From a virus: a stretch of 50,781 nucleotides of DNA. Positions within the stretch are counted from its first letter, which is position 1; the number at the start of each line of letters is the position of its first letter. A model generated the notes under the pieces. The model was given only the letters and a program-made list of their open reading frames with translations. It made no database searches and had not been told where the DNA came from. The translations under genes and the position numbers were made by a program. Of this stretch, positions 1,064 through 17,196 are shown piece by piece. The stretch is taken from IMG/VR virus record IMGVR_UViG_3300033075_000810; one strand, given 5' to 3'.

Positions 1064-1077
1064 TGCCTACATAGGGC

Positions 1078-2722: not shown

Positions 2723-2766
2723 GCCCTAACAGAGCGTTGCATCCTTGGTTTTTGTTGCAAGCCCCG

Positions 2767-3063: not shown

Positions 3064-3079
3064 GACCTTATGTAGTAGC

Positions 3080-4003: not shown

Positions 4004-4419
4004 GCCGTATGTAGGCTAGACATCCCTTTGCTGTTGCCGATTGTGGTGTGGAAGCATTTCACGAACCCCTCAGGGGGCAGCGTGTACTGGCTGCTCACCG
4101 GCAGCCCTAGCTCCACCCGGATCTCCTCCAGGCGGACGCAGAACACGTTCAGCCACCAGTAGACCGTGCCACGCTTGATCTCGCTGTCGTAGACGAACTC
4201 GATCTCCTCGCCCTCGTACTTGCCCCAGGCGTCCGGGTTCGCCGGCGTCTCCTTGCGGACGACGCTGACGTGGGCACCGTACCTCTGGCGGTTCACATGG
4301 TAGTACTTGGGGATCAGGCTGCGGTAGTAGTCCGCCAAGTCCTGCTCGATCTCCAGCACCAACTTGTGGCCGTATTCGGCCACCCCGTATCGGAGGATGC
4401 CGGCTGCTTTGTAGAGCAT
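4000..4419 (-). CDS. 2H phosphoesterase-like protein (LigT/CPDase family candidate)
   Basis: Two H-x-T/S-x motifs (AHVSVV, FHTTIG) in a 139-aa protein. ATGA overlap with the downstream gene. Confidence 0.4.
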   Translation of the reverse strand: MLYKAAGILRYGVAEYGHKLVLEIEQDLADYYRSLIPKYYHVNRQRYGAHVSVVRKETPANPDAWGKYEGEEIEFVYDSEIKRGTVYWWLNVFCVRLEEIRVELGLPVSSQYTLPPEGFVKCFHTTIGNSKGMSSLHTA

Positions 4420-4438
4420 TGGTCATCTCCTCGTTCAG

Positions 4439-4511
4439 AGGCTGGGGTGGGAATCGAACCCACGTCGGGCACTTTAACAGAGTGCTGCTCGGCCTTCTGA
4501 GCTACCCAGCC
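4439..4511 (-). tRNA. tRNA-Asn(GTT)
   Basis: Cloverleaf GGCUGGG..CCCAGCC-U. Anticodon loop CUGUUAA. T-loop TTCGATT. Confidence 0.8.
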
Positions 4512-4842
4512 AGATTTCATCCTCGACCTCAAAGTGACAGTTGGCACAAAGTAAGTCACACTTCTCGGCCTCTGCCACACACTTCGCCCACGACTTGCAG
4601 TCGCCGCTGCCGATCCCGAATGTCTTCTGACCACGGTCCTTGTGGTGGAACTGCAAAGCCTTCTTGCACTTGTCGTAGCCGCACCTCTGGCACTTGCCGC
4701 CGAAGTGTTCGACCAGCCGAGCCTTGAGCCGCCTACGCGACTCGGACACCTTCTCGACATTGCACCTCTTGCACTTCAGGTGTCCTTCCTTGGTATGGTA
4801 ACCCTCGGTCAGTCCGTGGTGCTTGCAGTTCTTGGTGAGCAT
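4474..4842 (-). CDS. HNH endonuclease (paralog 2)
   Basis: Zn-ribbon CxxC pairs plus FHHKD...CANCH. 3' end overlaps tRNA-Asn by 38 nt. Confidence 0.8.
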   Translation of the reverse strand: MLTKNCKHHGLTEGYHTKEGHLKCKRCNVEKVSESRRRLKARLVEHFGGKCQRCGYDKCKKALQFHHKDRGQKTFGIGSGDCKSWAKCVAEAEKCDLLCANCHFEVEDEIWLGSSEGRAALC

Positions 4843-4920
4843 AGCCTAGTAGAGCTATGCTGCATCAACTTCGACATAGTTGCGTGCTAACCGTTACACT
4901 ACAAGTCCATTCTACTTCAC

Positions 4921-5472
4921 TTAGCCGCCGCCGGGCAACTTGACTCCCAGGCGGTTTGCGGCCTGCATGACCACCGTCTGGTGCTGTTCAGGAGGCACGT
5001 CCCTCAGGATTTCGGCCACCTTCTCGGCACCCGGCTTCAGGCCGCTCTCACCCATGCCCAGGTAGGGCTTCAGGGCGTTCACCAGCCGCTCCAGGGCCGA
5101 CATCAGCATCTCGGCGTCAATCGTCTCCATCGGCCAGGCGTTGGTGCCGGCGTCCCAGCCCTCCTTGCCCATCTGCCACGCCTTCTTGACCGAGTTGATC
5201 GCCATGCCCACCAGGGCACCGAAGGGGCCGTTCTCGCGGCCCGACCAGTCACGACGCTTGGGGTCGTCCTTGCTCACCACGCCGCCGACTCCGGTCGCAG
5301 CACCCCAGCCGGCCCCCAGGACCGCACCCAGCAGGGCACCGGCCACGCCCAGCGTGCCGTTGATGCCGACGCCCAGCGAGAAGCTCAGAGGCCCCTCGGA
5401 GACGGGCTTCTTGGTCTTCGACTCAAAGAAGGAACCGTGACGCTGTTCCATCCACTCCCTGAAGTTCATCAT
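4921..5472 (-). CDS. glycine-rich hypothetical protein
   Basis: ORF 4921..5514 trimmed to the MMNFREWMEQ start, because tRNA-Gly occupies 5507+. Gly/Ala-rich hydrophobic core. Confidence 0.45.
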   Translation of the reverse strand: MMNFREWMEQRHGSFFESKTKKPVSEGPLSFSLGVGINGTLGVAGALLGAVLGAGWGAATGVGGVVSKDDPKRRDWSGRENGPFGALVGMAINSVKKAWQMGKEGWDAGTNAWPMETIDAEMLMSALERLVNALKPYLGMGESGLKPGAEKVAEILRDVPPEQHQTVVMQAANRLGVKLPGGG

Positions 5473-5506
5473 GCTCCTAGTTAGGAGTGGCGGTCGCTGT
5501 TTTGAG

Positions 5507-5581
5507 TGCGGCATGAGAGAATCGAACTCTCACCTTCTCGTTGGCAACGAGACGTGCAGGGGACCACTACACCAATGCCGC
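5507..5581 (-). tRNA. tRNA-Gly(GCC)
   Basis: Cloverleaf GCGGCAU..AUGCCGC-A. Anticodon loop UUGCCAA. 11-nt D-loop. Confidence 0.75.
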
Positions 5582-5700
5582 GTGTGAGAGAGCTTGCAGT
5601 AGCCTAAGTCGCGTTGCTCTGCCTTCCGCCGGTTGCCCGGCCCCCTAGCCCTCATCGGAGTGCTGCCCCGCCAGCCACGACGCCAACGGGACCATTCGCC

Positions 5701-6000
5701 TCAATCTTCTGAGTGGTTCTTCCTGTGGCAGTTCGCACACAGGATTACGCACTTCGCTATCTCTTCCTTCAGCCTCTTTAGGCCCCAGTTTCTCGCCGCC
5801 CTGGATATCGCCATCACCTTGTCAGCTTCATGGTGGAAGTCGAGACACCTTGGATGGTTCTCTGGGCAGTTCTGGCACTTGAGTGTGCCCTTCAGGCTGT
5901 CGATGTATTCCCTGTTCTTAGCCCGCTTTCGCCTCTGGGCCTCAGCGTACTTGTCCTTGTTTCGCTGATAGTACTCTTGGTGCCACTTCTTGTCCTTCAT
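5701..6000 (-). CDS. HNH endonuclease (paralog 3)
   Basis: CQNCPENHPRCLDFHHEADK...CANCHRKNH. Confidence 0.8.
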   Translation of the reverse strand: MKDKKWHQEYYQRNKDKYAEAQRRKRAKNREYIDSLKGTLKCQNCPENHPRCLDFHHEADKVMAISRAARNWGLKRLKEEIAKCVILCANCHRKNHSED

Positions 6001-6042
6001 GGACTAAGATAGTAGTTCAAGTCCCATCTTGGGATTAAAACG

Positions 6043-6124
6043 TCCTCCACCGGGGACTTGAACCCCGAATGCCTTTCGGCGTCCCGTTAAGAGCGGGGGG
6101 CTGTGCCACTACAGCTTGTGGAGG
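6043..6124 (-). tRNA. atypical tRNA-like (CTT anticodon loop, 82 nt, extended variable region)
   Basis: Good acceptor, D-arm and T-arm (CGGGG-TTCAAGT-CCCCG). Anticodon loop CUCUUAA with a 27:43 mismatch. 14-nt variable region forming a GCC-GAAA-GGC hairpin. Confidence 0.45.
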
Positions 6125-6602
6125 TCAATCTGACATATCCTCTCGTCCGATTCGCCAGCGACTCAAGGGGGCCAAGGTCCAACCTTCTGGGGTCTTCTAC
6201 AATCAGCAGCCCTGCATGGACTTTCCGGTGACAGTTGCTGCAAAGCACTTCGCACTTCTCAGCCTCGGCCAGGATCTTGGGCAGAGCATACACACAACGT
6301 GCCAGGATGAACTCTTTGTCCTCGCCATCGATATGGTGCATGTCTAAACAAACAGAGCATCGCTCATCGCAAAATCTACACCCCGCCGAGGTTTTAATTG
6401 CATTCAGGGCTTCCGCGATTCGTTTTTGCCTGGATGCGGCCCTTTTGCCGTGCCTATCCTTCTGCTTGGTGGCATGGTAGTAAGCCTTGGCCTGCTCCCT
6501 GTTGCAGATAATGCACTTCGCCTGAAGCCCATCTGAGCGACTTCGACAGACCCCGAACTCACTCAGAGGTTTGTCCTGCTTGCACTTGTTGCACTTCTTC
6601 AT
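6087..6602 (-). CDS. HNH endonuclease (paralog 4)
   Basis: Start moved to MKKCNKCKQDKPL because tRNA-Lys occupies 6636-6706. CxxC...DMHHIDGEDKEF...CSNCHRKVH. 3' tail overlaps the tRNA-like gene by 38 nt. Confidence 0.7.
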   Translation of the reverse strand: MKKCNKCKQDKPLSEFGVCRSRSDGLQAKCIICNREQAKAYYHATKQKDRHGKRAASRQKRIAEALNAIKTSAGCRFCDERCSVCLDMHHIDGEDKEFILARCVYALPKILAEAEKCEVLCSNCHRKVHAGLLIVEDPRRLDLGPLESLANRTRGYVRLTSTSCSGTAPRS

Positions 6603-6635
6603 GGTGTTAAGAGAGTGATGTGCATTCGATTTCAG

Positions 6636-6706
6636 TGGGACCGGAGGGAATCGAACCCTCATAGGGCGGATTAAGAGTCCGCTGCATTCCAATCTGCCAC
6701 GATCCC
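6636..6706 (-). tRNA. tRNA-Lys(CTT)
   Basis: Cloverleaf GGGAUCG..CGGUCCC-A. Anticodon stem GCGGA/UCCGC. Loop CUCUUAA. T-loop TTCGATT. Confidence 0.75.
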
Positions 6707-6708
6707 AG

Positions 6709-7104
6709 TCATGTTGTCATCGGGGCTGGGCCGGACATCGAGTCGCCGGCGTTCTGGTAGGCCCCCGTCTCCTGCTCGGCGTCGATCCTCTGGATGCCCT
6801 CGTAGGGGGCCGAACTGTAGGCCAGAACCTTCTTCCGCCCCGTCGCGTCGTGCTGCACCGAGAAGGTGTCCAACCTGCTGCTGGTGATGACACCGGGGCC
6901 GTCCTTCGTGTTCACCCTGACGCCGACCAATTCCCTGAAACTGGAGACGCCCATCAGGCGGTTGAACCTCTCGCGGGCACGCTTCTTCCAGCCCAGCGAC
7001 CTCAGGTTGGCCCTGTCCGCCTCGGAGGGTGTCGGCTGGGCTACTGGCGTCTCAAGGCCCTCTCGGAGGACCATCCACTCGGTGAACGTCTTGTACTGGC
7101 TCAT
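6709..7104 (-). CDS. hypothetical protein (N-term KTFTEWMVLRE motif)
   Basis: 131-aa ORF. Confidence 0.5.
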   Translation of the reverse strand: MSQYKTFTEWMVLREGLETPVAQPTPSEADRANLRSLGWKKRARERFNRLMGVSSFRELVGVRVNTKDGPGVITSSRLDTFSVQHDATGRKKVLAYSSAPYEGIQRIDAEQETGAYQNAGDSMSGPAPMTT

Positions 7105-7112
7105 GCCAGTAT

Positions 7113-7397
7113 CTATGACCCGCCGCCCGTCTCTTTGAAGTACTCTGCCTTCTCGGCCTCGCTCATGTTGGCGACGAACTCCTTGTGTTCGACGTGCGGG
7201 TCGGTCTGGCGTTTGATCATCCTCAGCAGGTCGGGTTCGACCTTCGTCCAGCGGGTCGTCTCCCTCCCCTGGGGCGTCCTGAACACGAAGCCCAGGTGGT
7301 CCTCTCTGCCGGGGTCCAACTTGAGCATGAGGCCGAAGACCTCAGTCGTGAACACCTGCGGCTTCCGCTTCTTCTGCGGCTGTCTCTGTTGTGCCAT
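7113..7397 (-). CDS. hypothetical protein
   Basis: 94-aa ORF, basic N-terminus. Confidence 0.4.
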   Translation of the reverse strand: MAQQRQPQKKRKPQVFTTEVFGLMLKLDPGREDHLGFVFRTPQGRETTRWTKVEPDLLRMIKRQTDPHVEHKEFVANMSEAEKAEYFKETGGGS

Positions 7398-7680
7398 CGG
7401 CCTGACCCCATTCGTAGCCTTGCATGAACTGTCGGGCTGCTTCCCCCTGGATCTCGCCCACTTTCTGATTGTGTTCGCACCAGCAGTTCTTGAGCAGCAG
7501 GTGGAAGGCCCCGTCGTCGGGGTTGCTGCACTCCCTGAAGATCGAGATGCTGGCCCCGCAGTCGTAGAAGCTCCTGAGGCCGACCTTCATGTGGGTGCCG
7601 GGCAGGGCGTGCCCGCCGATCCACCTGGCCCCACAGCAGAGGCACGTCTCAGGAACCTTGGGCGTCAGGTAGTTCATCAT
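7342..7680 (-). CDS. hypothetical Cys-containing protein
   Basis: ORF 7342..7848 trimmed to MMNYLTPKVPETCLCCGARW. ATGA overlap with the upstream gene. Confidence 0.45.
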   Translation of the reverse strand: MMNYLTPKVPETCLCCGARWIGGHALPGTHMKVGLRSFYDCGASISIFRECSNPDDGAFHLLLKNCWCEHNQKVGEIQGEAARQFMQGYEWGQADGTTETAAEEAEAAGVHD

Positions 7681-7991
7681 CGGTCCCAGTAGTCCGTGGA
7701 AACGTGCTGCCTGGTCAGGCCCATCGTCACCAAGTGCCCGCAGCCGTCCAGTGGGCAACGGATGCTGAGGTAGTCGCCGTCGCGTGGGTCCGAGTTGTAG
7801 TCGGCCTCGCCCTGCTTGAACCTGAACCGCGTGTGGCAGTGGCCGCACGACGCCTCGTAAACCTTCTCGCTGGGCAACTGGCCCTTCCTGATGATCTCGA
7901 CCACGGCGTCACCTCCTGTAAGCTGCCTGTCAGGGCAACTGAATCTTTCCGGCGTGCAGCTTCCTGTGGCAGTTAGAACAAACGCATGCAC
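7677..7991 (-). CDS. hypothetical Zn-ribbon protein
   Basis: CGHCH...CPLDGCGH motifs. Start uncertain, since 62 nt would overlap the HNH tail. Confidence 0.4.
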   Translation of the reverse strand: MHAFVLTATGSCTPERFSCPDRQLTGGDAVVEIIRKGQLPSEKVYEASCGHCHTRFRFKQGEADYNSDPRDGDYLSIRCPLDGCGHLVTMGLTRQHVSTDYWDR

Positions 7992-8343
7992 ATTTGGCTA
8001 TCTCCTCAAGGATGCGGTCCCAACTGTACCCCATGCTTGCCACCCTGCCAATCTCAAAATCCTTGCCATCGGGGTCAAGGTGGTGAAACTCAAGACAGCA
8101 GGGTTCGCTTTCTGGACACAGGGCACACTTGCACCCCATCTTGAAGTCCCTAAGCATCTCCTGCAACTGCTTCCTATGAAGTCTATTCCTCTGCCGTATG
8201 TCCTGGCAGTTTTTCAGGTAGTTGTCCCGACTCAGCTTGCTGCTGCAAACCCTACACTTGGTTTGTAGTCCATCTCTCCTCTTGGCGTCCTTGTTGAAGT
8301 CTTCAGCCGGCTTCTCGATCTGGCACACCGAACATTTCTTCAT
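7930..8343 (-). CDS. HNH endonuclease (paralog 5)
   Basis: CSVCQ...CRVC Zn ribbon. CLEFHHLDPDGKDF...CSNCHRKLH. Confidence 0.8.
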   Translation of the reverse strand: MKKCSVCQIEKPAEDFNKDAKRRDGLQTKCRVCSSKLSRDNYLKNCQDIRQRNRLHRKQLQEMLRDFKMGCKCALCPESEPCCLEFHHLDPDGKDFEIGRVASMGYSWDRILEEIAKCACVCSNCHRKLHAGKIQLP

Positions 8344-8378
8344 GCTCTAGCGTAGTCTGACTATGTCAATTTTCAGAA

Positions 8379-8449
8379 CTGCCGACCAGGGAATCGAACC
8401 CCGGTTTCTTCGTTCAGAGCGAAGCGTCTTACCATTAGACGAGTCGGCA
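8379..8449 (-). tRNA. tRNA-Gln(CTG)
   Basis: U1:A72 and G73 (Gln-type). Anticodon loop CUCUGAA. Perfect stems. Confidence 0.75.
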
Positions 8450-8453
8450 AAAA

Positions 8454-8524
8454 CTGCGGGACTAGGAATCGAACCTAGACCAAGAGGGTCAGAGTCTCTT
8501 GTGCTACCACTACACCATCCCGCA
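8454..8524 (-). tRNA. tRNA-Gln(CTG)-like (second copy, divergent sequence)
   Basis: U1:A72, G73. Anticodon loop CUCUGAC with A31:C39 mismatch. Separated from the previous tRNA by 4 nt. Confidence 0.6.
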
Positions 8525-8593
8525 TCGGTTACGCATCGTTGATCAATAGGTAGATCAACACCGCCCCGATCACGATCAGCAGGTCCGCTTCCA

Positions 8594-8860
8594 TCAGTCG
8601 CCCTCTGGCTTGGGTCCGAACATCTGCTCGACCGCCGCCGGAAACTTCGCCCTGAAAGCCTCCAGGGCACCCCTCATGTACTCCAGCAGGGTCCGCACTT
8701 GCAGGCCCTCGGAGGCTCGCAGCTTCATGCCGCCGTCGCCGGCGGCGTGGTTGTTGTACTCGCCCTTGCCGTACATGATCACGCCCTTGAAGGACTTCCG
8801 GCTCATCAGTTCGTTGACCAACTCGTCGTTGGTCATGAACTCAGGGTCCAGCTTACTCAT
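8594..8860 (-). CDS. hypothetical protein
   Basis: 88-aa ORF. Confidence 0.4.
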   Translation of the reverse strand: MSKLDPEFMTNDELVNELMSRKSFKGVIMYGKGEYNNHAAGDGGMKLRASEGLQVRTLLEYMRGALEAFRAKFPAAVEQMFGPKPEGD

Positions 8861-9398
8861 CGACCGGCTCCCCCAGGATGATCTCGCAGATGTCGTCCTC
8901 CAGCTTGTCGTAGTCGGCCACCGTCATCCCCTGGATGGCCGCGTCGAGGGCCGGCTCCCTGACGAGCCGGTTGATGATCGCCTCGCACACGTCGGCTGGG
9001 TCGGCCTCGGAGCCGCAGACCTGCTCGTCGCCGCCGGCTTCCTCGTCGTCCTTGAGGAACCTCAGGACCATGTAGGCCGCTTGCTCGCTGGCGAACGATC
9101 CGTCCTCATGTCTGATCTCAAAGGGCGACTGGCACTCCACCGTCCAGCCGTGCCTCTCCAGCAGTGCCTCGTCCTTCATCGTCTCCTCCTTGGACCCTAA
9201 CTCAGGGTAGCTCTGGAGGAGCCAGAGTAGCTCTTTGGCGTTGACCTCGTCAAGCACAAGTTCGTGTGTGCTGCCCGCCTTGCAGCAGATGAAGGTTAGG
9301 TGGTAGTCGCTGCGGACCTGACCTGAGGCGTCGAGGTGGTGCTTGCGGTTCGACACGATGTTGAACCGGCAGAAGCGGGTGTCGGTCGTGGTGTTCAT
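8853..9398 (-). CDS. hypothetical acidic protein
   Basis: 181-aa ORF. ATGA-type overlaps at both ends. Confidence 0.45.
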   Translation of the reverse strand: MNTTTDTRFCRFNIVSNRKHHLDASGQVRSDYHLTFICCKAGSTHELVLDEVNAKELLWLLQSYPELGSKEETMKDEALLERHGWTVECQSPFEIRHEDGSFASEQAAYMVLRFLKDDEEAGGDEQVCGSEADPADVCEAIINRLVREPALDAAIQGMTVADYDKLEDDICEIILGEPVDE

Positions 9399-10078
9399 GA
9401 CGTAAGAGAGAATCGGTCGCCCGAGTTGTACTTCTTCACGTTGCCGTTCTTGTCGCAGTAGGTCGCCCCGCCTTTCAGCACAGTGACCTCGTCGTCCACC
9501 ATCAGGATGCCGCCGCCCTCATCGACCCCCAGGCCGCTCAGTCCGGGGTGTTTGTCGAGCAGCTTCTTCAGGCGGTCCAGCCGATCCCTGGCGTCAAAGT
9601 GCTGGTCCATGACGACATCGGTCATGCCGAAGCCCACCGACTCAGTATCCTCGTAGATCATTACGTCGCTCATGGCCGAGCAACCTGCGGACGTTCCGCC
9701 CATCAGCACCCCGCTCTCCGACATCCTCTTCAGCTTGCCTTTTAGAGGCCCTAGGGCGTCCACCAGCCGCTTCTGATCGCCCCCGCTGAACCAGACTCCA
9801 CTCGCGTCATCGAGGTCTTCCTCGCTGCTGTAGACGACCACGTTGGGCCTCCCCAGCCAGGGGGTCACCGCCTTTTCAGGCTCGCTGGAGGCCAGGGGAA
9901 TGATCACCACCTTGCCGCCGGCCATTCGGATGAACTCACCCCTGTAATGGTCGGGCATCTCGCCGCCGCCCCAGAGGTAGAATCGCTTCGGTGTCGCCGG
10001 CTTAGGCGGGCAACAAAGGGTCAGGCAGAGTGCGAAGATGCCGGCCAGCAAAACCAGTTTCATGATGTCAGTCCTCAT
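9395..10078 (-). CDS. peptidase S51-like (cyanophycinase/peptidase E family) lipoprotein
   Basis: Signal peptide with lipobox-like LTLCC. GGTSAG nucleophile motif. Confidence 0.5.
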   Translation of the reverse strand: MRTDIMKLVLLAGIFALCLTLCCPPKPATPKRFYLWGGGEMPDHYRGEFIRMAGGKVVIIPLASSEPEKAVTPWLGRPNVVVYSSEEDLDDASGVWFSGGDQKRLVDALGPLKGKLKRMSESGVLMGGTSAGCSAMSDVMIYEDTESVGFGMTDVVMDQHFDARDRLDRLKKLLDKHPGLSGLGVDEGGGILMVDDEVTVLKGGATYCDKNGNVKKYNSGDRFSLTS

Positions 10079-10114
10079 CAGGGGTAGGTACGCCCGTCAG
10101 AGTCTAACACGAAG

Positions 10115-10186
10115 TAGGCAAGGAGGGAATCGAACCCACACCCTTCGGCTTGTAAGACCGACGCTCCACCATTGAGCTACTCGCCC
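10115..10186 (-). tRNA. tRNA-Val(TAC)
   Basis: Anticodon stem UCGGU/GCCGA. Loop CUUACAA. A73. One U:U mismatch in the T-stem. Confidence 0.65.
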
Positions 10187-10422
10187 GCATCTTCCTCGTA
10201 GTGCAACTTCCTGTGGCAGTTGGCACACAAGATGTCGCACTTGGCGATCTCGTCCAAGATCCTTTGTCTGCTGAGTTTCTGCCTGACCATGTAGGAGACG
10301 ATCATCTCCTTGCCTTCCCTGTGATGGAAGTCGAGGCAGGCCGGGGTGTCACTCTCGATGACTAATCGCCCCTGAAGGAATCGAACCTTCGACTTCTGCG
10401 TGTGATGCAGGCGTGATGCCAT
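10177..10422 (-). CDS. HNH endonuclease, N-terminally truncated (possible decaying copy)
   Basis: LDFHHREGKE...CANCHRKLH, but no Zn-ribbon region and no ATG start; the upstream ORF runs into tRNA-Val(CAC). 3' end overlaps tRNA-Val(TAC) by 10 nt. Confidence 0.4.
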   Translation of the reverse strand: MASRLHHTQKSKVRFLQGRLVIESDTPACLDFHHREGKEMIVSYMVRQKLSRQRILDEIAKCDILCANCHRKLHYEEDAGE

Positions 10423-10436
10423 TTCACCAAGGGGCG
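10366..10436 (-). tRNA. tRNA-Val(CAC)
   Basis: C1:G72 acceptor CGCCCCU/AGGGGCG. Anticodon loop AUCACAC. T-loop TTCGATT. Confidence 0.65.
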
Positions 10437-10442
10437 GGGGAG

Positions 10443-10513
10443 TCGTCCGTGAAGGAATCGAACCTTCAATACCAGCGTGTCATGCTGGCGTGATACCATT
10501 TCACCAACGGACG
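10443..10513 (-). tRNA. tRNA-Val(GAC)
   Basis: Paralog of the previous gene. Perfect anticodon stem CCAGC/GCUGG. Loop AUGACAC. Confidence 0.7.
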
Positions 10514-10609
10514 GTGGCTGCCAGGGGGGTGGTTGCACATCCCCATTTGCCTTGTACTTTGGCCGACTTTCTTCGTCCCCTTACGGGTCCGCTTAGTCCA
10601 CCTGGCTAG

Positions 10610-10683
10610 TCAGAGAGACAGGAGTCGAACCTGCGATCTCTAGGTTCCCGACCTAGCGGCCACTCCACCTGGCCCACTCCCTG
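10610..10683 (-). tRNA. tRNA-Pro(GGG)-like, C33 in anticodon loop
   Basis: C1:G72 plus A73 (Pro identity). Anticodon arm CUAGG-UCGGGAA-CCUAG. T-arm GCAGG-TTCGACT-CCTGT. Confidence 0.55.
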
Positions 10684-10885
10684 AATAGATACCCCTCATG
10701 GAAGAGGTCAAACAGCACTGGGACGCCCGCTTGCAGATGGCGTCCGTCCTCCGCTACTACGATGAGGAGCGGCTGTTTGCCACGCTCCACTACTCCTCGC
10801 CCTCGGGTGAGGAGTTGCTCTTCATCGCCTTCAAGTTCATCGACGGCTGGGAGCCGGTGAAGGCCACCGCGTCGATCTCGCTGAG

Positions 10886-10959
10886 TCGGGCTGAGAGGAT
10901 TTGAACCTCCGATCTCTAGTCCCCAGACTAGCGGCCACTCCAAACTGGCCCACAGCCCG
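10886..10959 (-). tRNA. tRNA-Pro(GGG)-like with 8-nt anticodon loop
   Basis: C1:G72, A73. T-arm GGAGG-TTCAAAT-CCTCT. Anticodon arm CUAG-UCUGGGGA-CUAG, one nt short of a 5-bp stem, so the loop is 8 nt. Confidence 0.5.
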
Positions 10960-10988
10960 ATGTCGCCCCGCCAAGGCGGGGGCTTGCT

Positions 10989-11432
10989 TCACTTCTTGAT
11001 AGCGACCATGCACACCACGCAGCCGCTCTCCTTGTCATCCAGTTCCATCGAGTGGACCTTGGTGTGGTCGAACTCGTAGACGATGCCGACGCCGACCTCC
11101 GTCCAGCACTCCTCGGCGGTGATGATCGCCCTGCCCGTCTTGGGGAGGATCAGAGGGATCACGAAGGTCGTGTCCTCAAACTTGGCCGGGAGCTTGTCGG
11201 TGTGAGGCTCGGCTCCCTGACAGGCCGAGAAGTAGACGTAATTGAGTTTGCTCCTGGGCTGGCCGATGACCGCCGCCAGTTGCTCCATCAACTCCTCGCC
11301 GCCCCCCTCCTTCTCCAGCTTACGGATCTGGAACTTCTCGGGGGTGTTCACCTTGTAGTTCTCGTACTTCACCTTGTCGGCGTTGTCGAGGACCGACTGA
11401 GGAATCATCACCACGCCGCGTGTCTTGATCAT
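10989..11432 (-). CDS. hypothetical protein (possible 2OG-Fe oxygenase-like HxD...H)
   Basis: ATG at 11432 with strong AAGGAGG SD. Listed ORF start 11480 is a TTG. Confidence 0.45.
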   Translation of the reverse strand: MIKTRGVVMIPQSVLDNADKVKYENYKVNTPEKFQIRKLEKEGGGEELMEQLAAVIGQPRSKLNYVYFSACQGAEPHTDKLPAKFEDTTFVIPLILPKTGRAIITAEECWTEVGVGIVYEFDHTKVHSMELDDKESGCVVCMVAIKK

Positions 11433-11476
11433 TTTGGGTTCCCTCCTTGCCGGGCGAAGCACGGATGGTAAGGCGG

Positions 11477-11932
11477 TCAACCCGCTTTGTCAACAGTGAG
11501 CCTGAACATCATGTTCTCGTCTACGACCGCTCGCCCGGCGTGGAGTTTCCTGTGGCAGTTGGCACACAGGATGACACACTTCTCCATCTCCTTCACCACG
11601 CGGGACCACTTCCACCCGCAGCGTATCCCATCGGCTATCTGCTTGTCCTTGTCTTGCACATGATGAAAATCAAGGCAAGCAGGGTCGGCCTCAGGGCACA
11701 AAGAGCATTTGGACCTGCTTTTGATCTCTTGGTAGAGCCGGGAATTGGCCTCCACGGTCGCCAGCTTCCTTGAAATGGCCGAGGCGATATGCTCTTGGCG
11801 GTTTTCTTGGTAGTACTGCCTCATGCGTTCTTTGTTGCAAACCTTACAGTAAGACTGCAACCCTGAACCGCTCTTGTTGAACTCCGATTTAGGCTTGTCT
11901 AGCCGACAACAACTGCATCTCTTGGTGTCCAT
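11477..11932 (-). CDS. HNH endonuclease (paralog 7)
   Basis: CSCCRLDKPKSEF...CKVCN. CLDFHHVQDKDK...CANCHRKLH. Confidence 0.8.
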   Translation of the reverse strand: MDTKRCSCCRLDKPKSEFNKSGSGLQSYCKVCNKERMRQYYQENRQEHIASAISRKLATVEANSRLYQEIKSRSKCSLCPEADPACLDFHHVQDKDKQIADGIRCGWKWSRVVKEMEKCVILCANCHRKLHAGRAVVDENMMFRLTVDKAG

Positions 11933-11970
11933 GACCTAAGAGAGTGTCAATCTGGAGGTTCGTTTCAAAA

Positions 11971-12038
11971 TTGCGGGCCAGAGGATCGAACTCTGTGCGG
12001 CTTGCTTCAAAGGCATGCCTGTGTCCAACACTCCCGCA
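11971..12038 (-). tRNA. atypical tRNA-like (TTG anticodon loop, 68 nt, truncated D-arm)
   Basis: U1:A72 acceptor with one mismatch. Anticodon arm CAUGC-CUUUGAA-GCAAG. T-arm CAGAG-TTCGATC-CTCTG. The D-region is only 14 nt. Confidence 0.4.
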
Positions 12039-12065
12039 GTCAGTCCCCTGCCGAGGGCCAGGCCG

Positions 12066-12308
12066 TCACTTCGTCTTGTGGGGAGGCATCTGATACTCGA
12101 TGCAGCAGGAGGTTTCCCAGCTACCGCACGAACACAGGTAGACCTTGGCGATCACCCGCCTTTTGCAGGTTGGGCACCTCACCCTCAGCCTCTTGTACTT
12201 GGGGCCGGGCTTCACGTCGAGCTTGCCGGCGTGGCCTGTGGGGTTGGTACACCATTCACCCTTGGGCTGGGCCTGCTTCCTGCTCTCCCTGCGTTGAGGG
12301 TTCCTCAT
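12066..12308 (-). CDS. small basic Zn-ribbon protein
   Basis: CPTCKRR...CSCGSWETSCC. Confidence 0.35.
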   Translation of the reverse strand: MRNPQRRESRKQAQPKGEWCTNPTGHAGKLDVKPGPKYKRLRVRCPTCKRRVIAKVYLCSCGSWETSCCIEYQMPPHKTK

Positions 12309-12618
12309 CTTCCACCTCCACCTCGCTCAGATCCCATCGACAGGACCGGCAGCGGCCCTCGTCATCGTACAGCAGGCCGTCCGGCCCGACGTAGCAGTCC
12401 TCATGGAGGCCGCTTGAGCAACCCCAGTTCAACTTGCCGTCAGTCGGGTGGGCCTTGTAGCACAGGTGGCTTGCTTTGACGGCTACCCAGCCGCTATCGC
12501 TCACCTGGCCGTGCATCCTGAGGACCATCTCGCTCGCCACGAAGCCCCTGGCGTGAGCCGCCTCAAGCTCGGCAACCACCTTCCTGGCCTCTTCCAGATT
12601 GATCGTCAAGTGGTTCAC
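12256..12618 (-). CDS. hypothetical protein
   Basis: 120-aa ORF. Overlaps the previous ORF by 53 nt in another frame. Confidence 0.4.
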   Translation of the reverse strand: MNHLTINLEEARKVVAELEAAHARGFVASEMVLRMHGQVSDSGWVAVKASHLCYKAHPTDGKLNWGCSSGLHEDCYVGPDGLLYDDEGRCRSCRWDLSEVEVEDEEPSTQGEQEAGPAQG

Positions 12619-12678
12619 GGTGTCCTCCTACCCCAGGCCCTTGCGGGCACTGGGCGGCTTCATGAAATCGCTTCCTTG

Positions 12679-13107
12679 CTAAGGGAGTCGGGCGAGGGTT
12701 AGTTTGCCAGCATGCACTTTCCGGTGGCAGTTACTGCACAAAACGCAGCACTTGGTAATCTCCTTGGCGATCCTGTCGGCAGATAGTTGTCGCCGGACGC
12801 CGTCCGCTACATTGAAGTCCTTGCCTCCATCTAGGTGATGGAAATCAAGACAGCAAACCTCCGATTCTCCGCAAACCTGACAGCCTTTGCTTTTGGCACT
12901 TTTCAAAATCGATGACAGGTATCGCCTCGTCCTTTTGGCGTTCTCCCTCACCTTCTGTCTGCGTCCATTCTTTGGCTCCCGATAGTACTCTCGGTCGCGT
13001 GCCCTGGTACACTCACGGCAATATGCCTGAGTGCCCCTGCGGCTATCCTTGTTCCACTCTGAGAGTGGTTTGTCGAGGTTGCATCGTCGGCAGTGTTTAG
13101 TCTCCAT
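12679..13107 (-). CDS. HNH endonuclease (paralog 8)
   Basis: ATG at 13107 (METKHCRRCNLDKPL); the listed start 13155 is TTG inside a tRNA. CLDFHHLDGGKDF...CSNCHRKVH. Confidence 0.75.
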   Translation of the reverse strand: METKHCRRCNLDKPLSEWNKDSRRGTQAYCRECTRARDREYYREPKNGRRQKVRENAKRTRRYLSSILKSAKSKGCQVCGESEVCCLDFHHLDGGKDFNVADGVRRQLSADRIAKEITKCCVLCSNCHRKVHAGKLTLARLP

Positions 13108-13147
13108 GCCATAGGAGAGTGAGATGCTTCGGAAAATCCGAAGCAAG

Positions 13148-13220
13148 TCGGGCAACCCGGAGTCGCACCGGGAACCCCCCGCTTCCGACGCGGGAATGCT
13201 TCTATCCGCACCCTTGCCCG
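13148..13220 (-). tRNA. tRNA-Pro(CGG)
   Basis: C1:G72 CGGGCAA/UUGCCCG, A73. Perfect anticodon stem. Loop GUCGGAA. Unusual T-loop TGCGACT (G at position 55). Confidence 0.65.
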
Positions 13221-13283
13221 TTGCTTCGGTTTTCGGGATTAAGGATCGCTCCTAGTCCCAGGATCACCGTCACCAACCTTAGG

Positions 13284-13358
13284 TCAGAGAGACAGGGGTC
13301 GAACCTGCATGATAGCCTGCCTCCAAAGCAGGTGGCTTGCCAATTAGCCCACTCTCTG
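13284..13358 (-). tRNA. tRNA-Pro(TGG)
   Basis: C1:G72 CAGAGAG/CUCUCUG, A73. Anticodon arm CCUGC-UUUGGAG-GCAGG. 7-nt variable loop. Confidence 0.65.
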
Positions 13359-13435
13359 ATTTGACTGGAGACATAGACGAACAGAGATAGTTTCGCCGCG
13401 TGCTACTGTTACACTACCCCTTGAGAGCTTGGGCT

Positions 13436-13515
13436 TGGTCAAGGGGGCAGGAGTCGCACCTGCACTTCGTCCTCCGAATGGAATGAAGTAGCCCTGTCCT
13501 GCACCTTCCAGTCAG
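13436..13515 (-). other. orphan tRNA 3'-fragment: T-arm (GCAGG-TGCGACT-CCTGC) + CCCCTTG + ACCA, no pairing 5' acceptor
   Basis: 80 nt abutting the 3' end of tRNA-Asp. Internal hairpins, but no complement to the 3' acceptor strand exists within reach. Confidence 0.4.
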
Positions 13516-13588
13516 CGGCCTAAACGGGGGTCGAACCCGCACACTTCCGGTTGACAACCGGCTGCTGTCCCAACTCAGCTTCTAGGCC
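13516..13588 (-). tRNA. tRNA-Asp(GTC)
   Basis: GGCCUAG/UUAGGCC acceptor, G73. Loop UUGUCAA. T-arm GCGGG-TTCGACC-CCCGT. Confidence 0.7.
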
Positions 13589-13672
13589 GTGTTTTTGGCT
13601 AAGTCTTTGGTCGGCATGTCGGCACCCCCACAATCGTAAGGGGCCTGTCACCAAGCGACCACTGGTGACAAG

Positions 13673-13745
13673 CGGACTTGACGGGAGTCGAACCCGCTCC
13701 CCAACCTCGACAGGGTTGTGTGCTATGCCGGTACACTACAAGTCC
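13673..13745 (-). tRNA. tRNA-Asp(GTC) (second copy)
   Basis: GGACUUG/CAAGUCC, G73. Perfect anticodon stem CAACC/GGUUG. Loop CUGUCGA. Confidence 0.7.
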
Positions 13746-13858
13746 ATTTCCTTCCTGATGCGGGAGCGACCCGTTTCTCCTTCGTGTGCAGGAAGGTCAC
13801 ACTATCCTCAACCCCACCCAAAGGCACGCAGGCCCTTGGGCATTGAAGAGGCTGGTAG

Positions 13859-13930
13859 CTGCCTCGGGAGGGGTCGAACCTCCATAGCCGACTTAACAGG
13901 TCGGTGTCCTACCAGTTGAACGACAAGGCA
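13859..13930 (-). tRNA. tRNA-Asn(GTT) (second copy, U1:A72 G73)
   Basis: UGCCUUG/CGAGGCA acceptor. Perfect anticodon stem CCGAC/GUCGG. Loop CUGUUAA. Confidence 0.75.
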
Positions 13931-13951
13931 GTGAGTTGTTGCTTAGGTGAG

Positions 13952-14024
13952 TAGCCCCGTAGGGTAACGATCCCTCTTGACCGGATTAAAAGTCCGGGCC
14001 TCATCCACTAAAGGTGTCGGAGCC
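13952..14024 (-). tRNA. tRNA-Lys(TTT)-like with degenerate T-loop
   Basis: Anticodon arm CCGGA-CUUUUAA-UCCGG. Acceptor GGCUCCG/CGGGGCU (two G:U pairs). T-loop ATCGTTA is non-canonical. Confidence 0.35.
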
Positions 14025-14090
14025 ATTGATGATGGACTCCGTGCGTTTATGCGTCATCTTGAACTCCTTCCTTTGTTGGTGACCTAAGAG

Positions 14091-14161
14091 AGCCGGTGGG
14101 GGGAATCGGACCCCCATTTCCTGTTTACGAGGCAGGCGTCTTACCACTAGACGACACCGGC
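14091..14161 (-). tRNA. tRNA-Thr(CGT)
   Basis: Perfect acceptor GCCGGUG/CACCGGC. Loop CUCGUAA with a C31:A39 mismatch. T-loop TCCGATT. Confidence 0.6.
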
Positions 14162-14443
14162 TAACATCAGTGCCTTGTAGTATCCCCGCTCTTTCGCGGT
14201 CTTGATCCTATGGCACTTCACGCATCTAACGTCGCACTTGGCGATCTCAGCCTTGATCGACTCCAGGCTGTGGCACCTCATCGCGGCCACGTCGTGGATC
14301 TTCCCGTCGCGGTGATCGAAGTCTAGGACAATCGGGTTGTCCTCTCCGCACTCCACACAGGGGTGTGCCTTCAGGTATTCATGATGGCTGCTCGCCTTTT
14401 GGGACTGGAGGCGTAGTGCCTCTTGTCCTTTTCCCTGCCACAC
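14147..14443 (-). CDS. HNH endonuclease-like (paralog 9, start uncertain)
   Basis: [19 protein letters not shown]...CVKCHRIK. Listed ORF 14147..14722 runs through two tRNAs, so it is trimmed to the GTG at 14443. 3' end overlaps tRNA-Thr by 15 nt. Confidence 0.5.
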
Positions 14444-14514
14444 ACCTTGCAGTAGTCTTGCTTGCCGTCTGGCTTCATGCCCTATCAGAGTCGTAATCGC
14501 CAGAAAAGTACGAG

Positions 14515-14588
14515 TCGGGGTGGTGGGAATCGAACCCACTCGATGTCCTGGCCCCAAACCAGGCGGCTTGCCTTTAGCCCACACCCCG
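14515..14588 (-). tRNA. tRNA-Pro(TGG) (second copy)
   Basis: C1:G72 CGGGGUG/CACCCCG, A73. Anticodon arm CCUGG-UUUGGGG-CCAGG. 7-nt variable loop. Confidence 0.7.
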
Positions 14589-14662
14589 TCGCCTGTGGGG
14601 ACCGGAGTCCCCTTCGGGCTTTCGCCCAGGCCGCATTGACCTGCCTTTTCCCCTAAGGGAAG

Positions 14663-14737
14663 GGTGGACGAAGGGAATTGAACCCTCACCTTCTCGCTCA
14701 CAACGAGTCGTGCAGAAACCACTACACCACGTCCACC
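14663..14737 (-). tRNA. tRNA-His(GTG) with encoded G-1
   Basis: Extra 5' G pairing with discriminator C73. Loop UUGUGAG. T-loop TTCAATT. Confidence 0.75.
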
Positions 14738-14930
14738 ATAACTCGACCGACTAGCGGATTCCCCGTTTTCAGGTCACGCCGGTCAGATGACCACTCAGTT
14801 TCTGGATATCTAAGCTACAGTCTGCTCCACCCAGGTCTTCGTTTCAGAGATCGGTCGGAATCCGCCAACCCTCCACTACTCGTCCTGCCCTACCGAGGAT
14901 TACAACAAGGCTTGGGCCGGCTTTCGTGAG

Positions 14931-15003
14931 TACCCCGAGAAGGAATCGAACCTTCACCTCTGCCTTATCAGAGCGGCGTGCAGAGCCACTACACCATCGG
15001 GGT
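14931..15003 (-). tRNA. tRNA-Ile(GAT)
   Basis: A1:U72 and A73 as in bacterial tRNA-Ile. Loop CUGAUAA. One C:A mismatch in the anticodon stem. Confidence 0.65.
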
Positions 15004-15053
15004 ATGATGCCTGGGTACGATTCCAGGCAGCCCGGCTTTTGATCACCAGGCAG

Positions 15054-15124
15054 TGGAGCCTAGGGGAATCGAACCCCTATTTCAAGCATGCCATGCTTGC
15101 GTCTTCCCGTTAGACGAAGGCCCC
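15054..15124 (-). tRNA. tRNA-Ala(GGC)
   Basis: GGGGCCU/AGGCUCC with G3:U70, A73. Perfect anticodon stem. Loop AUGGCAU. Confidence 0.8.
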
Positions 15125-15195
15125 GGTCAGTCCCCTAATCCCTCCCGCCCTAGTATACGTCAGGCGGTCAGACGATTCGTGCCCTTACACCACAG

Positions 15196-15290
15196 TTGCG
15201 AACTGACCGGGAGTCGAACCCGGAACCTCACCGTGGGACGGGGACTGGTAATCTAAACTGCTCTGATGAGACAGAGCAAGGTCTGCAATC
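15196..15290 (-). other. tRNA-like fragment (T-arm CCGGG-TTCGACT-CCCGG plus hairpins, no complete cloverleaf)
   Basis: Canonical T-arm with GCUCUG-UCUCAUC-AGAGC hairpin upstream. No 5' acceptor strand found. Overlapped by the 3' end of HNH paralog 10. Confidence 0.3.
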
Positions 15291-15719
15291 CTCAACATTT
15301 CTCAAACCTCTCTCGACCAATCTGTGACACCTGGCACAGAGGACGATGCACTTGTTGACCTCCTGGGCCACTCTGTCTGACGAGTCGAAATAGACCGCTT
15401 GAGCTAAGTTGAATCCCTTCAAGTCTTTGTCCAAGTGGTGAAAGTCGAACTCACATGGGTGCCCTGGCCTCTTGCAGATTTGGCAGCCGTATTCGACCTT
15501 GATCTCGTCTAACCTCAAGGCTATTTGCTCACGCCTTTGGCGACGACGATCATTGGATTTCGCGGCAGCCGCTTTGGGATTCTTGCGATAATGGCGGCGA
15601 GAGCATTCCTTACTGCATGGCCGACAGATAGTGTTCAAGCCATCTGCTTTGGCTTTATTCTTGTTGAAATCGCTCAGTGGCTTGTCCTGTTTACAGGATG
15701 TGCATCTCTTGGCGTCCAT
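15228..15719 (-). CDS. HNH endonuclease (paralog 10)
   Basis: CTSCKQDKPLSDF...CRPC. CEFDFHHLDKDLKGF...CARCHRLVE. Confidence 0.8.
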   Translation of the reverse strand: MDAKRCTSCKQDKPLSDFNKNKAKADGLNTICRPCSKECSRRHYRKNPKAAAAKSNDRRRQRREQIALRLDEIKVEYGCQICKRPGHPCEFDFHHLDKDLKGFNLAQAVYFDSSDRVAQEVNKCIVLCARCHRLVERGLRNVEDCRPCSVSSEQFRLPVPVPR

Positions 15720-15760
15720 GAACTAAGAGAGTATTCGCACCACGATTTTAGACAAGAAAG

Positions 15761-15831
15761 TGGAGCCTATGAGAATTGAACTCATGTCTTCAGCATGCGA
15801 AGCTGATGTTCTCCCGCTGAACTAAGGCCCC
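15761..15831 (-). tRNA. tRNA-Ala(CGC)
   Basis: GGGGCCU/AGGCUCC with G3:U70, A73. Loop UUCGCAU. T-arm AUGAG-TTCAATT-CUCAU. Confidence 0.75.
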
Positions 15832-15832
15832 G

Positions 15833-16462
15833 TTATCTGTATCTCTCTCCTCTAGGGGTGATCTCCTTGTCGTCTCCCCTCATGATTTTGGCGATCCTTT
15901 GCCCGCCATCCTGCCACGTCGGCTTGCCGAGCGGCTGGCCGCTACTCTTCAGGTACTTGACCAGATCCTTCCTCACGAACACCTGGCCGAAACCGTAGAC
16001 CTTGCCGAGGTCCGCGTAACCGGGCAGGCCGACCTTCTTTGCCAACTTCTCGTACAGGCGGCTCAGGTCGCCGTCCATGCCGTTCCACCCGAGGGCCTCG
16101 GGCTTCTCCGTCTTCAGGAACGTCTTGACGATGCTGGCGATCTTCTTGAGTAGGGGGATCACTCTGTTCTTGCCGGTCCTCTTGTACTTGGCGTCGTCAT
16201 CCCCCCAGAGGTCTTCCTCAGGCTCCAAAAGTCTGGTCTGGGACGGGTAGAAGGTGACCGTCCAGTAAGGCAGCGACTTGCCGTTGATCGTGTAGGTCTG
16301 GCCCAGTGACATCTTGTCGAACTGAACCGCATACCAAGTGCCGTCGTCGTCCTTGAAGGACGCCACGTCGCTGACACCTTTCCTGCCCCAGAATGTGCCC
16401 GCCGGGGGCTGGGATGAGATGTCGTCAAACACCTCGTTCATGTAGTCCTTGAAGCCTTCCAT
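15833..16462 (-). CDS. hypothetical protein (N-term MEGFKDYMNE motif)
   Basis: ORF 15833..16579 trimmed to ATG 16462, because tRNA-Glu lies upstream. Confidence 0.5.
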   Translation of the reverse strand: MEGFKDYMNEVFDDISSQPPAGTFWGRKGVSDVASFKDDDGTWYAVQFDKMSLGQTYTINGKSLPYWTVTFYPSQTRLLEPEEDLWGDDDAKYKRTGKNRVIPLLKKIASIVKTFLKTEKPEALGWNGMDGDLSRLYEKLAKKVGLPGYADLGKVYGFGQVFVRKDLVKYLKSSGQPLGKPTWQDGGQRIAKIMRGDDKEITPRGERYR

Positions 16463-16489
16463 GCGGTATCTAGGCAACGCACCTAGAAA

Positions 16490-16560
16490 TGACCCGTAAG
16501 GGAATCGAACCCTCCTTTGCTGGTTGAGAACCAGCCGACCTCCCAGAAGTCGAACGGGCC
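16490..16560 (-). tRNA. tRNA-Glu(CTC)
   Basis: GGCCCGU/ACGGGUC. Perfect anticodon stem GCUGG/CCAGC. Loop UUCUCAA. Confidence 0.7.
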
Positions 16561-16650
16561 GAGACAGGTGGGGCGGCATGGGCGTGTCGCCCCACCTGAA
16601 TTGCCGTGTTGCCGGATTGTCAAAGAACTAGAGGCACTTTCAAGCCTCAG

Positions 16651-16709
16651 CGGAGCCGGCGGGAGTCGAACCCACCCAGGGTGCATGCTTGCCCTGACCA
16701 CTAGACTCC
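16651..16709 (-). other. 59-nt mini tRNA-like element (acceptor + one hairpin + T-arm GTGGG-TTCGACT-CCCGC)
   Basis: Too short for a cloverleaf. Acceptor GGAGUCU/CGGCUCC pairs at 6 of 7 positions. Single internal hairpin CAGGG-10nt-CCCUG. Confidence 0.3.
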
Positions 16710-16740
16710 AGATGTCACCAACACTCACCAGCCAGGAAAC

Positions 16741-16787
16741 AGAAAAAGCTCGCCTCAGGCTTGGGTGCCTGAGGCGAGCTTTGTGTA
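16741..16787 (-). terminator. bidirectional intrinsic terminator (15-bp perfect stem, A-run before, T-run after)
   Basis: AAGCTCGCCTCAGGC-ttgggt-GCCTGAGGCGAGCTT. On the minus strand it is followed by TTTTTCTGTTT. Confidence 0.5.
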
Positions 16788-17052
16788 CCCGGTTAGGGTG
16801 TCCAGCTTCGGCTCAGGCTTACCCTGAGCCGCGAGGCTCAAGGTGTTATGGAATATCGACGGCGGGCTTATTGGCTCGCTCGGTACGCACGATGGTACGA
16901 CGCGGCTGTTCAGCCGTTTTCGTCGTATGCCATGCTTGAGTACCGATGAACGTCATGATTCGGAACACCTTTCCTGTCTTGAAGCAGGGGGCCTTACGGT
17001 CCCCCGCCACCTGTCGTCGCTTCCCGCACGCTGCGGGTCGCTTCTGGTGAGT

Positions 17053-17123
17053 CTCGGGGGCAGGATTTGCACCTGCGATCTCAAGGTTATGAGCCTTGCG
17101 AGTTACTACTTCTCCACCCCGAA
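17053..17123 (-). tRNA. tRNA-Met/Ile2(CAT) type, atypical (3-bp D-stem, T-loop TGCAAAT)
   Basis: Perfect anticodon stem CAAGG/CCUUG. Loop CUCAUAA. U1:G72. Confidence 0.55.
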
Positions 17124-17124
17124 G

Positions 17125-17196
17125 TGCGGGAGGCTGGATTTGCACCAGCGATCTTCAGGTTATGAGCCTGACGAGTTACTACTTCTCTACTCCCGT
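17125..17196 (-). tRNA. tRNA-Met/Ile2(CAT) type, atypical (tandem paralog)
   Basis: Anticodon arm UCAGG-CUCAUAA-CCUGA. A1:C72 mismatch. T-loop TGCAAAT. 1 nt from the previous gene. Confidence 0.5.

Follow-up and report, generated by a model that had tools for sequence, protein, structure and literature searches.

We describe five proline-type tRNA genes lying between positions 10,610 and 14,588 of a 50,781-nucleotide (nt) stretch of viral DNA, IMG/VR record IMGVR_UViG_3300033075_000810, which we call the window at its full length. The window is a phage-like contig with nearly all genes on the minus strand. ARAGORN detects 31 tRNA genes in it, all on the minus strand, and the Rfam tRNA model recovers 28 of these. 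The main phage tRNA array (2157..17196, minus strand; ARAGORN and Rfam) comprises 27 tRNA genes with small open reading frames (ORFs) between them. A first-pass annotation made from the sequence alone had placed five Pro-type genes in this region, and ARAGORN finds tRNA-shaped genes at all five positions, on the minus strand; we name them by their 5' ends as 10683, 10959, 13220, 13358, and 14588. Four of the five score between 50.7 and 54.3 bits with Rfam model RF00005, above its gathering score of 29 bits. These are a tRNA-Pro(GGG) gene of the phage 'CAGGG-type' (10610..10683, 50.8 bits); a derivative of a bacterial-type tRNA-Pro(GGG) that ARAGORN reports as 'tRNA-?(Pro|Pro)(gg)' (10886..10959, 51.6 bits); a tRNA-Pro(UGG) with a CAG-type acceptor and the loop UUUGGAG (U33, A37; 13284..13358, 50.7 bits); and a second tRNA-Pro(UGG), with a CGGG-type acceptor and the canonical loop UUUGGGG (U33, G37; 14515..14588, 54.3 bits).

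The fifth, 13220 (13147..13220, minus strand), is a tRNA-like gene with the anticodon CGG, detected by ARAGORN only; a 131-nt search gave no Rfam tRNA match to it even at E<=10. Its loop is GUCGGAA (A37), and it carries G8 together with G55 in the T-loop UGCGACU. In our viral sample of 1056 unique tRNAs, 162 of them Pro, from 136 viral loci (L128-L264), G8 and G55 are combined in a single gene, and G55, which occurs in 2.7% of the sampled tRNAs and is commonest in Met, is found in none of the 162 Pro genes. It is doubtful that 13220 is a working tRNA gene. SpF41, a small RNA family matched over the same gene, was rejected at 25-31 bits against a threshold of 52. Elsewhere in the window, two tandem tRNA-Met(CAU) genes (17051-17196, minus strand) carry G55 in the T-loop UGCAAAU and lack GG in the D-loop, and score about 60 bits nonetheless.

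All five genes carry C1:G72, A73, G35, and G36, the identity elements of bacterial-type tRNA-Pro, in which G37 is the TrmD substrate for 1-methylguanosine (m1G37) (review PMC9976931). The pair C1:G72 with A73 had been taken as a mark of proline, and both are present in every one of the five genes, but they are not Pro-specific in this array: Val-CAC, Val-GAC, and one Lys-CUU gene have them too. The two Val genes (10366-10513, minus strand) are a tandem duplicate, 83% identical. The suggested over-representation of proline is marginal in the window; five of the 27 main-array tRNAs are Pro-type (binomial p about 0.05-0.07), isoacceptors for Lys, Gln, Asp, Asn, and Met are likewise duplicated, and multiple Pro genes per array are seen repeatedly in other large phages. 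In 13358, 14588, and 13220, the anticodon loop has 7 nt, U33, and a purine 37; 10683 departs from this pattern by C33 and 10959 by a 6-nt loop. Position 37 is A in 10683, 13220, and 13358, and G in 10959 and 14588.

Alignment of the five genes (alignment A2) reveals overlapping likenesses. The 10683 and 10959 genes have the D arm, anticodon stem, and variable loop in common, 10683 shares its acceptor stem and T arm with 13358, and the acceptor type of 10959 is also that of 14588 and 13220. Judged by their sequences, the five genes are two partly redundant sets of mosaic origin. Set A, of putative phage lineage, has a CAG(G/A)GAG acceptor and A37 and comprises 10683 (GGG, C33) and 13358 (UGG). 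Set B, with a bacterial-like CGGG acceptor, comprises 14588 (UGG), which is fully canonical, 10959, derived from a GGG gene, and 13220 (CGG), which is marginal; G37 is present in its two well-formed members, 10959 and 14588. The same two-set pattern is present in L141, a 533-kb viral contig (IMGVR_UViG_3300049215_000771).

Such sets could have been built through duplication and the swapping of tRNA halves, in a 15-kb array riddled with HNH genes. The array contains five paralogous HNH homing-endonuclease genes, at 11477..11932 (minus strand; PHROGs phrog_2255, 'HNH endonuclease'), 10177-10422 (truncated), 12679-13107, 14147-14500 (truncated), and 15228-15719. PHROGs recognized them with phrog_2255 E-values from 1e-33 to 5e-17, Pfam did not recognize the array HNH genes, and together they make up direct-repeat family D2. 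Repeats in the region occur only within tRNA bodies and HNH genes, a layout that would be compatible with endonuclease-driven shuffling. An orphan T arm with a 3' acceptor fragment, Asp-tRNA-like (repeat family D6; 15197-15223, minus strand), abuts the stop of the HNH gene at 15228-15719 and is possibly the remnant of a tRNA gene after endonuclease insertion.

Anticodon loops with C33 and A37

The first-pass annotation had remarked on C33 in the GGG gene at 10610, and this feature is real. The anticodon arm of 10683 reads CUAGG-UCGGGAA-CCUAG, with C33, A37, and A38 around the anticodon GGG, and of the 27 main-array tRNAs only 10683 departs from U33. Few positions of tRNA-Pro are as well conserved as U33 and G37, and m1G37 is the standard guard against +1 slippage at CCC. 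G37 is described as universal in tRNA-Pro, where it is modified to m1G37 (PMC9976931; PMC8643618).

The loop UCGGGAA is also found outside the window, in unrelated phages. In L141 (865-940) it stands on a stem that differs but is complementary (CCAGG/CCUGG), and in the cultured Phaeobacter phage MD18 it stands on CUCGG/CCGAG, in a gene whose record label is just tRNA-Pro. A distant relative, L003 (from a 342-kb contig), encodes a tRNA-Pro(UGG) with the loop UCUGGAG and a CAGGG acceptor, and a targeted scan of viral contigs yielded more C33/A37 Pro genes in phage tRNA arrays. The tRNA-Pro of Listeria phage A511 has the loop UUUGGAG, identical to that of 13358. We define in this analysis a CAGGG-type C33/A37 tRNA-Pro lineage by a CAG acceptor, A73, and the loop Y32-C33-NGG-A37-R38; the 10683 gene, which reads CAGGGAG...UCGGGAA...A73, conforms to this rule. 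Two exact-pattern scans of viral contigs, one with the 3' half of the 10683/13358 type and the other with the shared D-arm and anticodon-stem motif, returned no matches. A shifted register, in which UCGGGAA would be read as U33-CGG-G37, was considered and rejected, as the related loops UCUGGAG and CCUGGAA yield a Pro anticodon only in the standard register. CAGGG-type homologues were also observed in the Listeria phages LMSP-25, LP-048, LP-039, and others; several of the GenBank records concerned label them 'tRNA-OTHER' or leave them unannotated, which suggests that annotation pipelines stumble over these loops.

For a quantitative comparison, the viral sample was set against 109 tRNA-Pro genes of full length that match 10959 in acceptor stem and T arm, a set that includes one proviral locus from the viral-contig scan. 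C33 is present in 21 of the 162 viral Pro genes (13%), compared with 33 of 884 other viral tRNAs (3.7%; Fisher p=1.5e-5), and in none of the 109 bacterial comparison genes. The difference at position 37 is larger still: A37 occurs in 93/162 viral Pro genes (57%) and in 0/109 bacterial ones, all 109 of which have G37. A second viral scan, which left the anticodon arm unconstrained, recovered 112 unique CAGGG-type Pro genes, 16 with C33 and 80 with A37. C33 is frequent in viral tRNA-Ile as well (9 of 40 unique genes) and low in Thr, Val, Arg, and Asn.

When 16 C33 Pro genes were aligned, the window gene included, compensatory changes appeared at 17 of 21 pairs, among them all five pairs of the anticodon stem. 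Because the stems covary around a conserved loop, these genes are likely to be constrained, functional RNAs rather than products of decay. We found no paper on C33 or A37 in phage tRNA-Pro, and the genes sit annotated in public phage records. The 10683 gene thus appears to be a member of a widespread, undescribed phage tRNA-Pro lineage, and it probably works and reads CCC and CCU. In a crude set of 64 minus-strand ORFs, the Pro codons are divided into CCC (38%), CCG (34%), CCU (15%), and CCA (12%), and a GGG anticodon would cover the 53% made up of CCC and CCU. The anticodons of the array as a whole match the preference of the phage for C/G-ending codons.

The short anticodon arm of the 10959 gene

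The second GGG gene had been read as carrying the arm CUAG-UCUGGGGA-CUAG with an 8-nt loop, the architecture of a +1 frameshift-suppressor tRNA. The letters are as described, but the architecture is not. The anticodon arm of 10959, CUAGUCUGGGGACUAG, is 16 nt long against the canonical 17, not the 18 nt of a suppressor, and an 8-nt loop could be obtained from it only with a stem of 4 base pairs (bp). ARAGORN and Infernal agree instead on a 5-bp stem and the 6-nt loop CUGGGG (CUAGU-CUGGGG-ACUAG), which Infernal aligns with a loop deletion. The computed energies are -2.5 kcal/mol for 5 bp plus 6 nt and -1.1 kcal/mol for 4 bp plus 8 nt, the least stable form, and the U31-A39 pairing has an ensemble probability of 0.998. 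The same position, 31-39, is G-C in the sister gene 10683 and U-A in the closest bacterial homologues.

The origin of the short loop becomes clear from the homologues. A scan of the genomes of 185,579 species with the 22-nt 3' half of the gene identified more than 120 loci, chiefly in Acidimicrobiia, with some in Spirochaetota and Planctomycetota. In the comparison set drawn up around this 3' half, the anticodon arm is 5+7+5 in 109/109 genes, 75 of which have the GGG loop CUGGGGG; a 6-nt loop is absent from the 109 bacterial genes and from the 162 viral Pro genes alike. Since all 109 homologues have 17-nt arms and the main GGG loop among them is CUGGGGG, the short loop of 10959 is best described as a 1-nt deletion. 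The closest match, identical at 66 of 74 positions, is the tRNA-Pro(GGG) of a Ca. Poriferisodalaceae metagenome-assembled genome (L036), and the top six matches are all from Acidimicrobiia, which is only a hint, drawn from tRNA similarity, as to the host. Relative to this best match, 10959 shows compensatory changes in the D-stem and at a single pair of the anticodon stem, differs at a few loop bases, and is short of exactly one G in G34-G38. An intact counterpart is present in L141, with the acceptor CGGGGTG and the arm CAUGG-CUGGGGG-CCAUG. The GGGG run that invited comparison with suppressors is simply the native GGG anticodon followed by G37. In sequence, 10959 is close to a copy of an Acidimicrobiia-type tRNA-Pro(GGG); most likely it is redundant and impaired, and is decaying into a pseudogene.

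Several observations weigh against this account of the 10959 gene. The 109-gene set was picked by one shared 3' half and is not a random sample of bacterial tRNA-Pro. The gene is otherwise flawless, with all stem pairs intact and some of them compensatory relative to the bacterial homologues, and a body of this kind fits a very recent lesion and a tolerated or useful variant equally well. Loops of other than 7 nt are enriched in the window (4 of 31, compared with 10 of 1056 elsewhere in viral arrays; p=4e-4), which hints that the odd loops here may be more than decay; three of the four, however, lie in a separate cluster near a Ro60-like gene, and the main array alone (1/27) shows no significant excess. 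Finally, L002, the sole syntenic relative, is without both GGG genes, and no close relative has their orthologues. In L002 (1115-1211; JGI 3300059965), the slot of the GGG genes holds a 99-aa ORF and a 97-nt tRNA-like element with the same D arm as in the window (GGCC-AGGUG-GGCC), the T-loop UGCGAGU, and a long extra hairpin, unrecognised by Rfam.

Readings of the two GGG genes

Our best explanation overall, to which we assign a probability of about 0.6, is an HNH-rich array with two Pro sets, in which 10683 works, 10959 is crippled, and 13220 is doubtful. During infection, the array would supply Pro-tRNAs whose anticodons GGG, CGG, and UGG could jointly cover all CCN codons. We infer that these genes are expressed and that their products are charged and used in decoding: the host would process the Pro-tRNAs, and its prolyl-tRNA synthetase (ProRS) would charge them via G72, A73, G35, and G36. 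CCA would have to be added by the host as well, because none of the five Pro-type genes encodes it. The 10683 gene would be the working reader of CCC and CCU, the commonest Pro codons of the phage, and 10959 a bacterial-type copy crippled by the lost G. More tentatively, we suggest that large phages carry a conserved phage-type Pro set (A37, often C33) beside or instead of U33/G37 copies, so that proline decoding would be TrmD-independent, resistant to a host factor, or both; 10683 and 13358 would then be members of this set and 10959 a discarded copy of the bacterial type.

The frameshift-suppressor proposal, in which 10959 would resemble sufA6 and sufB2 with an expanded 8-nt loop, draws on the fact that the arm can be drawn in that way and on a four-G run like that of sufB2-type loops. 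In sufA6 and sufB2, an inserted base gives an 8-nt loop on a 5-bp stem and an 18-nt arm, one base above normal; the arm of 10959 is one base below normal, the 4-bp stem that the proposal requires is energetically disfavoured, and the bacterial loop that supplies the GGGG run has five G, one more than in 10959. We consider this the hardest of all the readings to credit. Alternatively, the missing G might be a homopolymer error of sequencing or assembly and the gene a normal tRNA-Pro(GGG), given that it differs from its homologues by exactly one base within a G run. This is very unlikely: the JGI assembly and the Logan assembly SRR32380200, which may share a source sample, are 100% identical over 17,779 nt across all five Pro genes, the genes of the window and of L001 are intact and tightly packed with no indel noise, and a run of 4-5 bases is not error-prone in short reads. 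It is less far-fetched, but still unlikely, that the 10959 tRNA functions with altered decoding, either by doublet reading from its 6-nt loop (-1 frameshifting) or by opening of U31-A39 to present C32-U33-GGG-G37-A38 on a 4-bp stem for normal reading of CCC and CCU. The rest of the gene is intact at 51.6 bits, the U33-GGG-G37 core is kept, and 6-nt-loop tRNAs make up about 0.6% of viral arrays, with two in L003; doublet decoding in vitro with six-membered loops was reportedly observed by Bruce, Atkins and Gesteland in 1986. Against this stand the absence of the short loop from all the bacterial and viral Pro homologues and the low stability of the open 8-nt form. In addition, a review describes anticodon loops of non-standard size as rare, counts 'tRNAs in a phage' as one of a handful of exceptions, and notes that none of the natural examples it cites is known to mediate frameshifting (PMC5009743).

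A different possibility, which would be layered onto the best explanation rather than replace it, is that C33 and A37, and possibly the short loop, are adaptive. They might evade a host nuclease or modifying toxin that acts on the anticodon loop, or free the phage from dependence on TrmD and m1G37, and proline decoding would persist when host tRNA-Pro is attacked or under-modified. Counting against the idea, no anticodon-loop nuclease specific to Pro is known to us from the presumed host group, and Pfam scans, with 30 further ORFs included, detected no gene for tRNA repair, tRNA modification, or defence in the window. The divergence of phage tRNAs in the anticodon loop, as raised in the first-pass annotation, does hold as a pattern: C33 and A37 are conserved in the phage lineage and absent from the bacterial homologues, and a bacterial-like G37 set is kept beside the A37 set both in the window and in L141. 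The nuclease interpretation put on it is less secure, as C33 is also present in 3.7% of viral tRNAs of other isotypes and may be tolerated drift. In a published evasion hypothesis (van den Berg et al. 2023, PMC10264068), phage tRNAs are set apart from those of the host by loop substitutions where cleavage is known to occur, precedents in other isoacceptors appear in two further papers (PMC11555353, PMC12409363), and m1G37 matters for both prolylation and frame maintenance (PMC8643618; PMC9976931). On balance, an adaptive role of these loops is conceivable, and we hold it with some doubt.

Surroundings and known systems

Unusual anticodon loops are also found elsewhere in the window and in other viral contigs. 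At 27615-28389 and 28663-30615 (minus strand), a TROVE/Ro60-like gene (Pfam PF05731, E=2e-20) directly precedes four tRNA-like genes whose anticodon arms are abnormal: one with the 6-nt loop GUUUAA (27789-27860, minus strand, 59.7 bits), one with a 20-nt arm (28115-28190, minus strand, 55.7 bits), one with a 15-nt loop (27615-27695, minus strand), and a 94-nt 'Arg' gene. The cluster has weak matches to YrlA (27912-28009; 28.9 bits vs 69) and to a tRNA-Sec-like element (27973-28074), and together with the Ro60-like gene it may form a phage Ro60/Y-RNA module. In L198 (4522-4943; IMGVR_UViG_3300002448_000056), five consecutive CAGGG/CTGGG-type tRNA-like genes encode CCA, and in three of the five the anticodon loop has 8 nt, one of these loops being UUGGGGGA on a scaffold of Pro type. 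Unlike 10959, the L198 gene with UUGGGGGA has the true sufB2-like architecture. The L141 locus (172-5697 and 11921-12015) holds six tRNA-Pro genes in 6 kb, with both acceptor types, and a 95-nt tRNA with the 8-nt loop CUCUUGUG.

The window as a whole has no close relative among cultured phages. Its best protein matches among cultured phages are about 30% identical, and a megablast search of 50,697 cultured phage records gave no match for positions 10400-14700. Its proteins include an NAD-dependent ligase and a PhoH-like ATPase (42821-44536, minus strand) interrupted at residues ~250-340 by an intein-type LAGLIDADG/Hom_end insertion. Among metagenomes, no more than two to four relatives came to light, all of them distant, for which a conserved 148-aa protein encoded directly upstream of 10959 (10989..11435, minus strand) served as the synteny anchor; it is 69% identical to its homologue in L002 and 57-59% identical to those in L003 and L004, the last of which has no tRNAs. 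Two neighbouring proteins used as queries recovered no relatives among viral contigs, and a promoter and terminator scan of the region gave counts near those of shuffled sequence.

Set beside known systems, the array resembles the phage tRNA arrays with homing endonucleases of jumbo and T4/T5-type phages in its dozens of one-strand tRNAs, duplicated isoacceptors, HNH genes, and codon match, and differs from them in that the window has no close relative among the cultured phage records. With the CAGGG-type tRNA-Pro genes of MD18, A511, and L141, the window genes share the CAG acceptor, A73, covarying stems, and the loops UCGGGAA (MD18, L141) and UUUGGAG (A511). They depart from CAGGG-type genes elsewhere in having G4:U69 or A4:U69 rather than G4:C69, and 10683 is further set apart as a mosaic whose D and anticodon domain is common to the bacterial-type gene. 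The lineage is represented in cultured phages such as MD18 and A511 and, with its C33/A37 loops, offers an experimental handle on why phages carry tRNAs, be it TrmD independence or tRNase resistance of Pro decoding. In this respect, 10683 and 13358 invite comparison with the nuclease-evading phage tRNAs (van den Berg et al. 2023; T5 tRNA-Tyr and tRNA-Lys, versus retron and PARIS), which likewise differ in the loop outside the anticodon; the published cases concern other isoacceptors, and the comparison here was made with bacterial, not host, tRNA-Pro.

For 10959, the nearest known system is the tRNA-Pro(GGG) of Acidimicrobiia and other phyla; the two have the same acceptor stem and T arm and the same U33-GGG-G37 core. 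Relative to that bacterial tRNA (CUGGGGG, m1G37 type), it lacks one G, and its D-stem and one anticodon-stem pair are compensatorily altered. With sufA6 and sufB2, it has in common proline identity and a G run near the anticodon; in those suppressors the change is an insertion (8-nt loop, 5 bp), whereas in 10959 it is a deletion (6-nt loop, 5 bp). A tempting claim is thereby removed, as what is found here is not a natural frameshift-suppressor tRNA but a one-base deletion in a redundant gene. Collectively, the genes of the window are further examples of kinds already known, namely a tRNA array of a phage, a tRNA-Pro lineage of phage type, and a bacterial-type copy altered by mutation.

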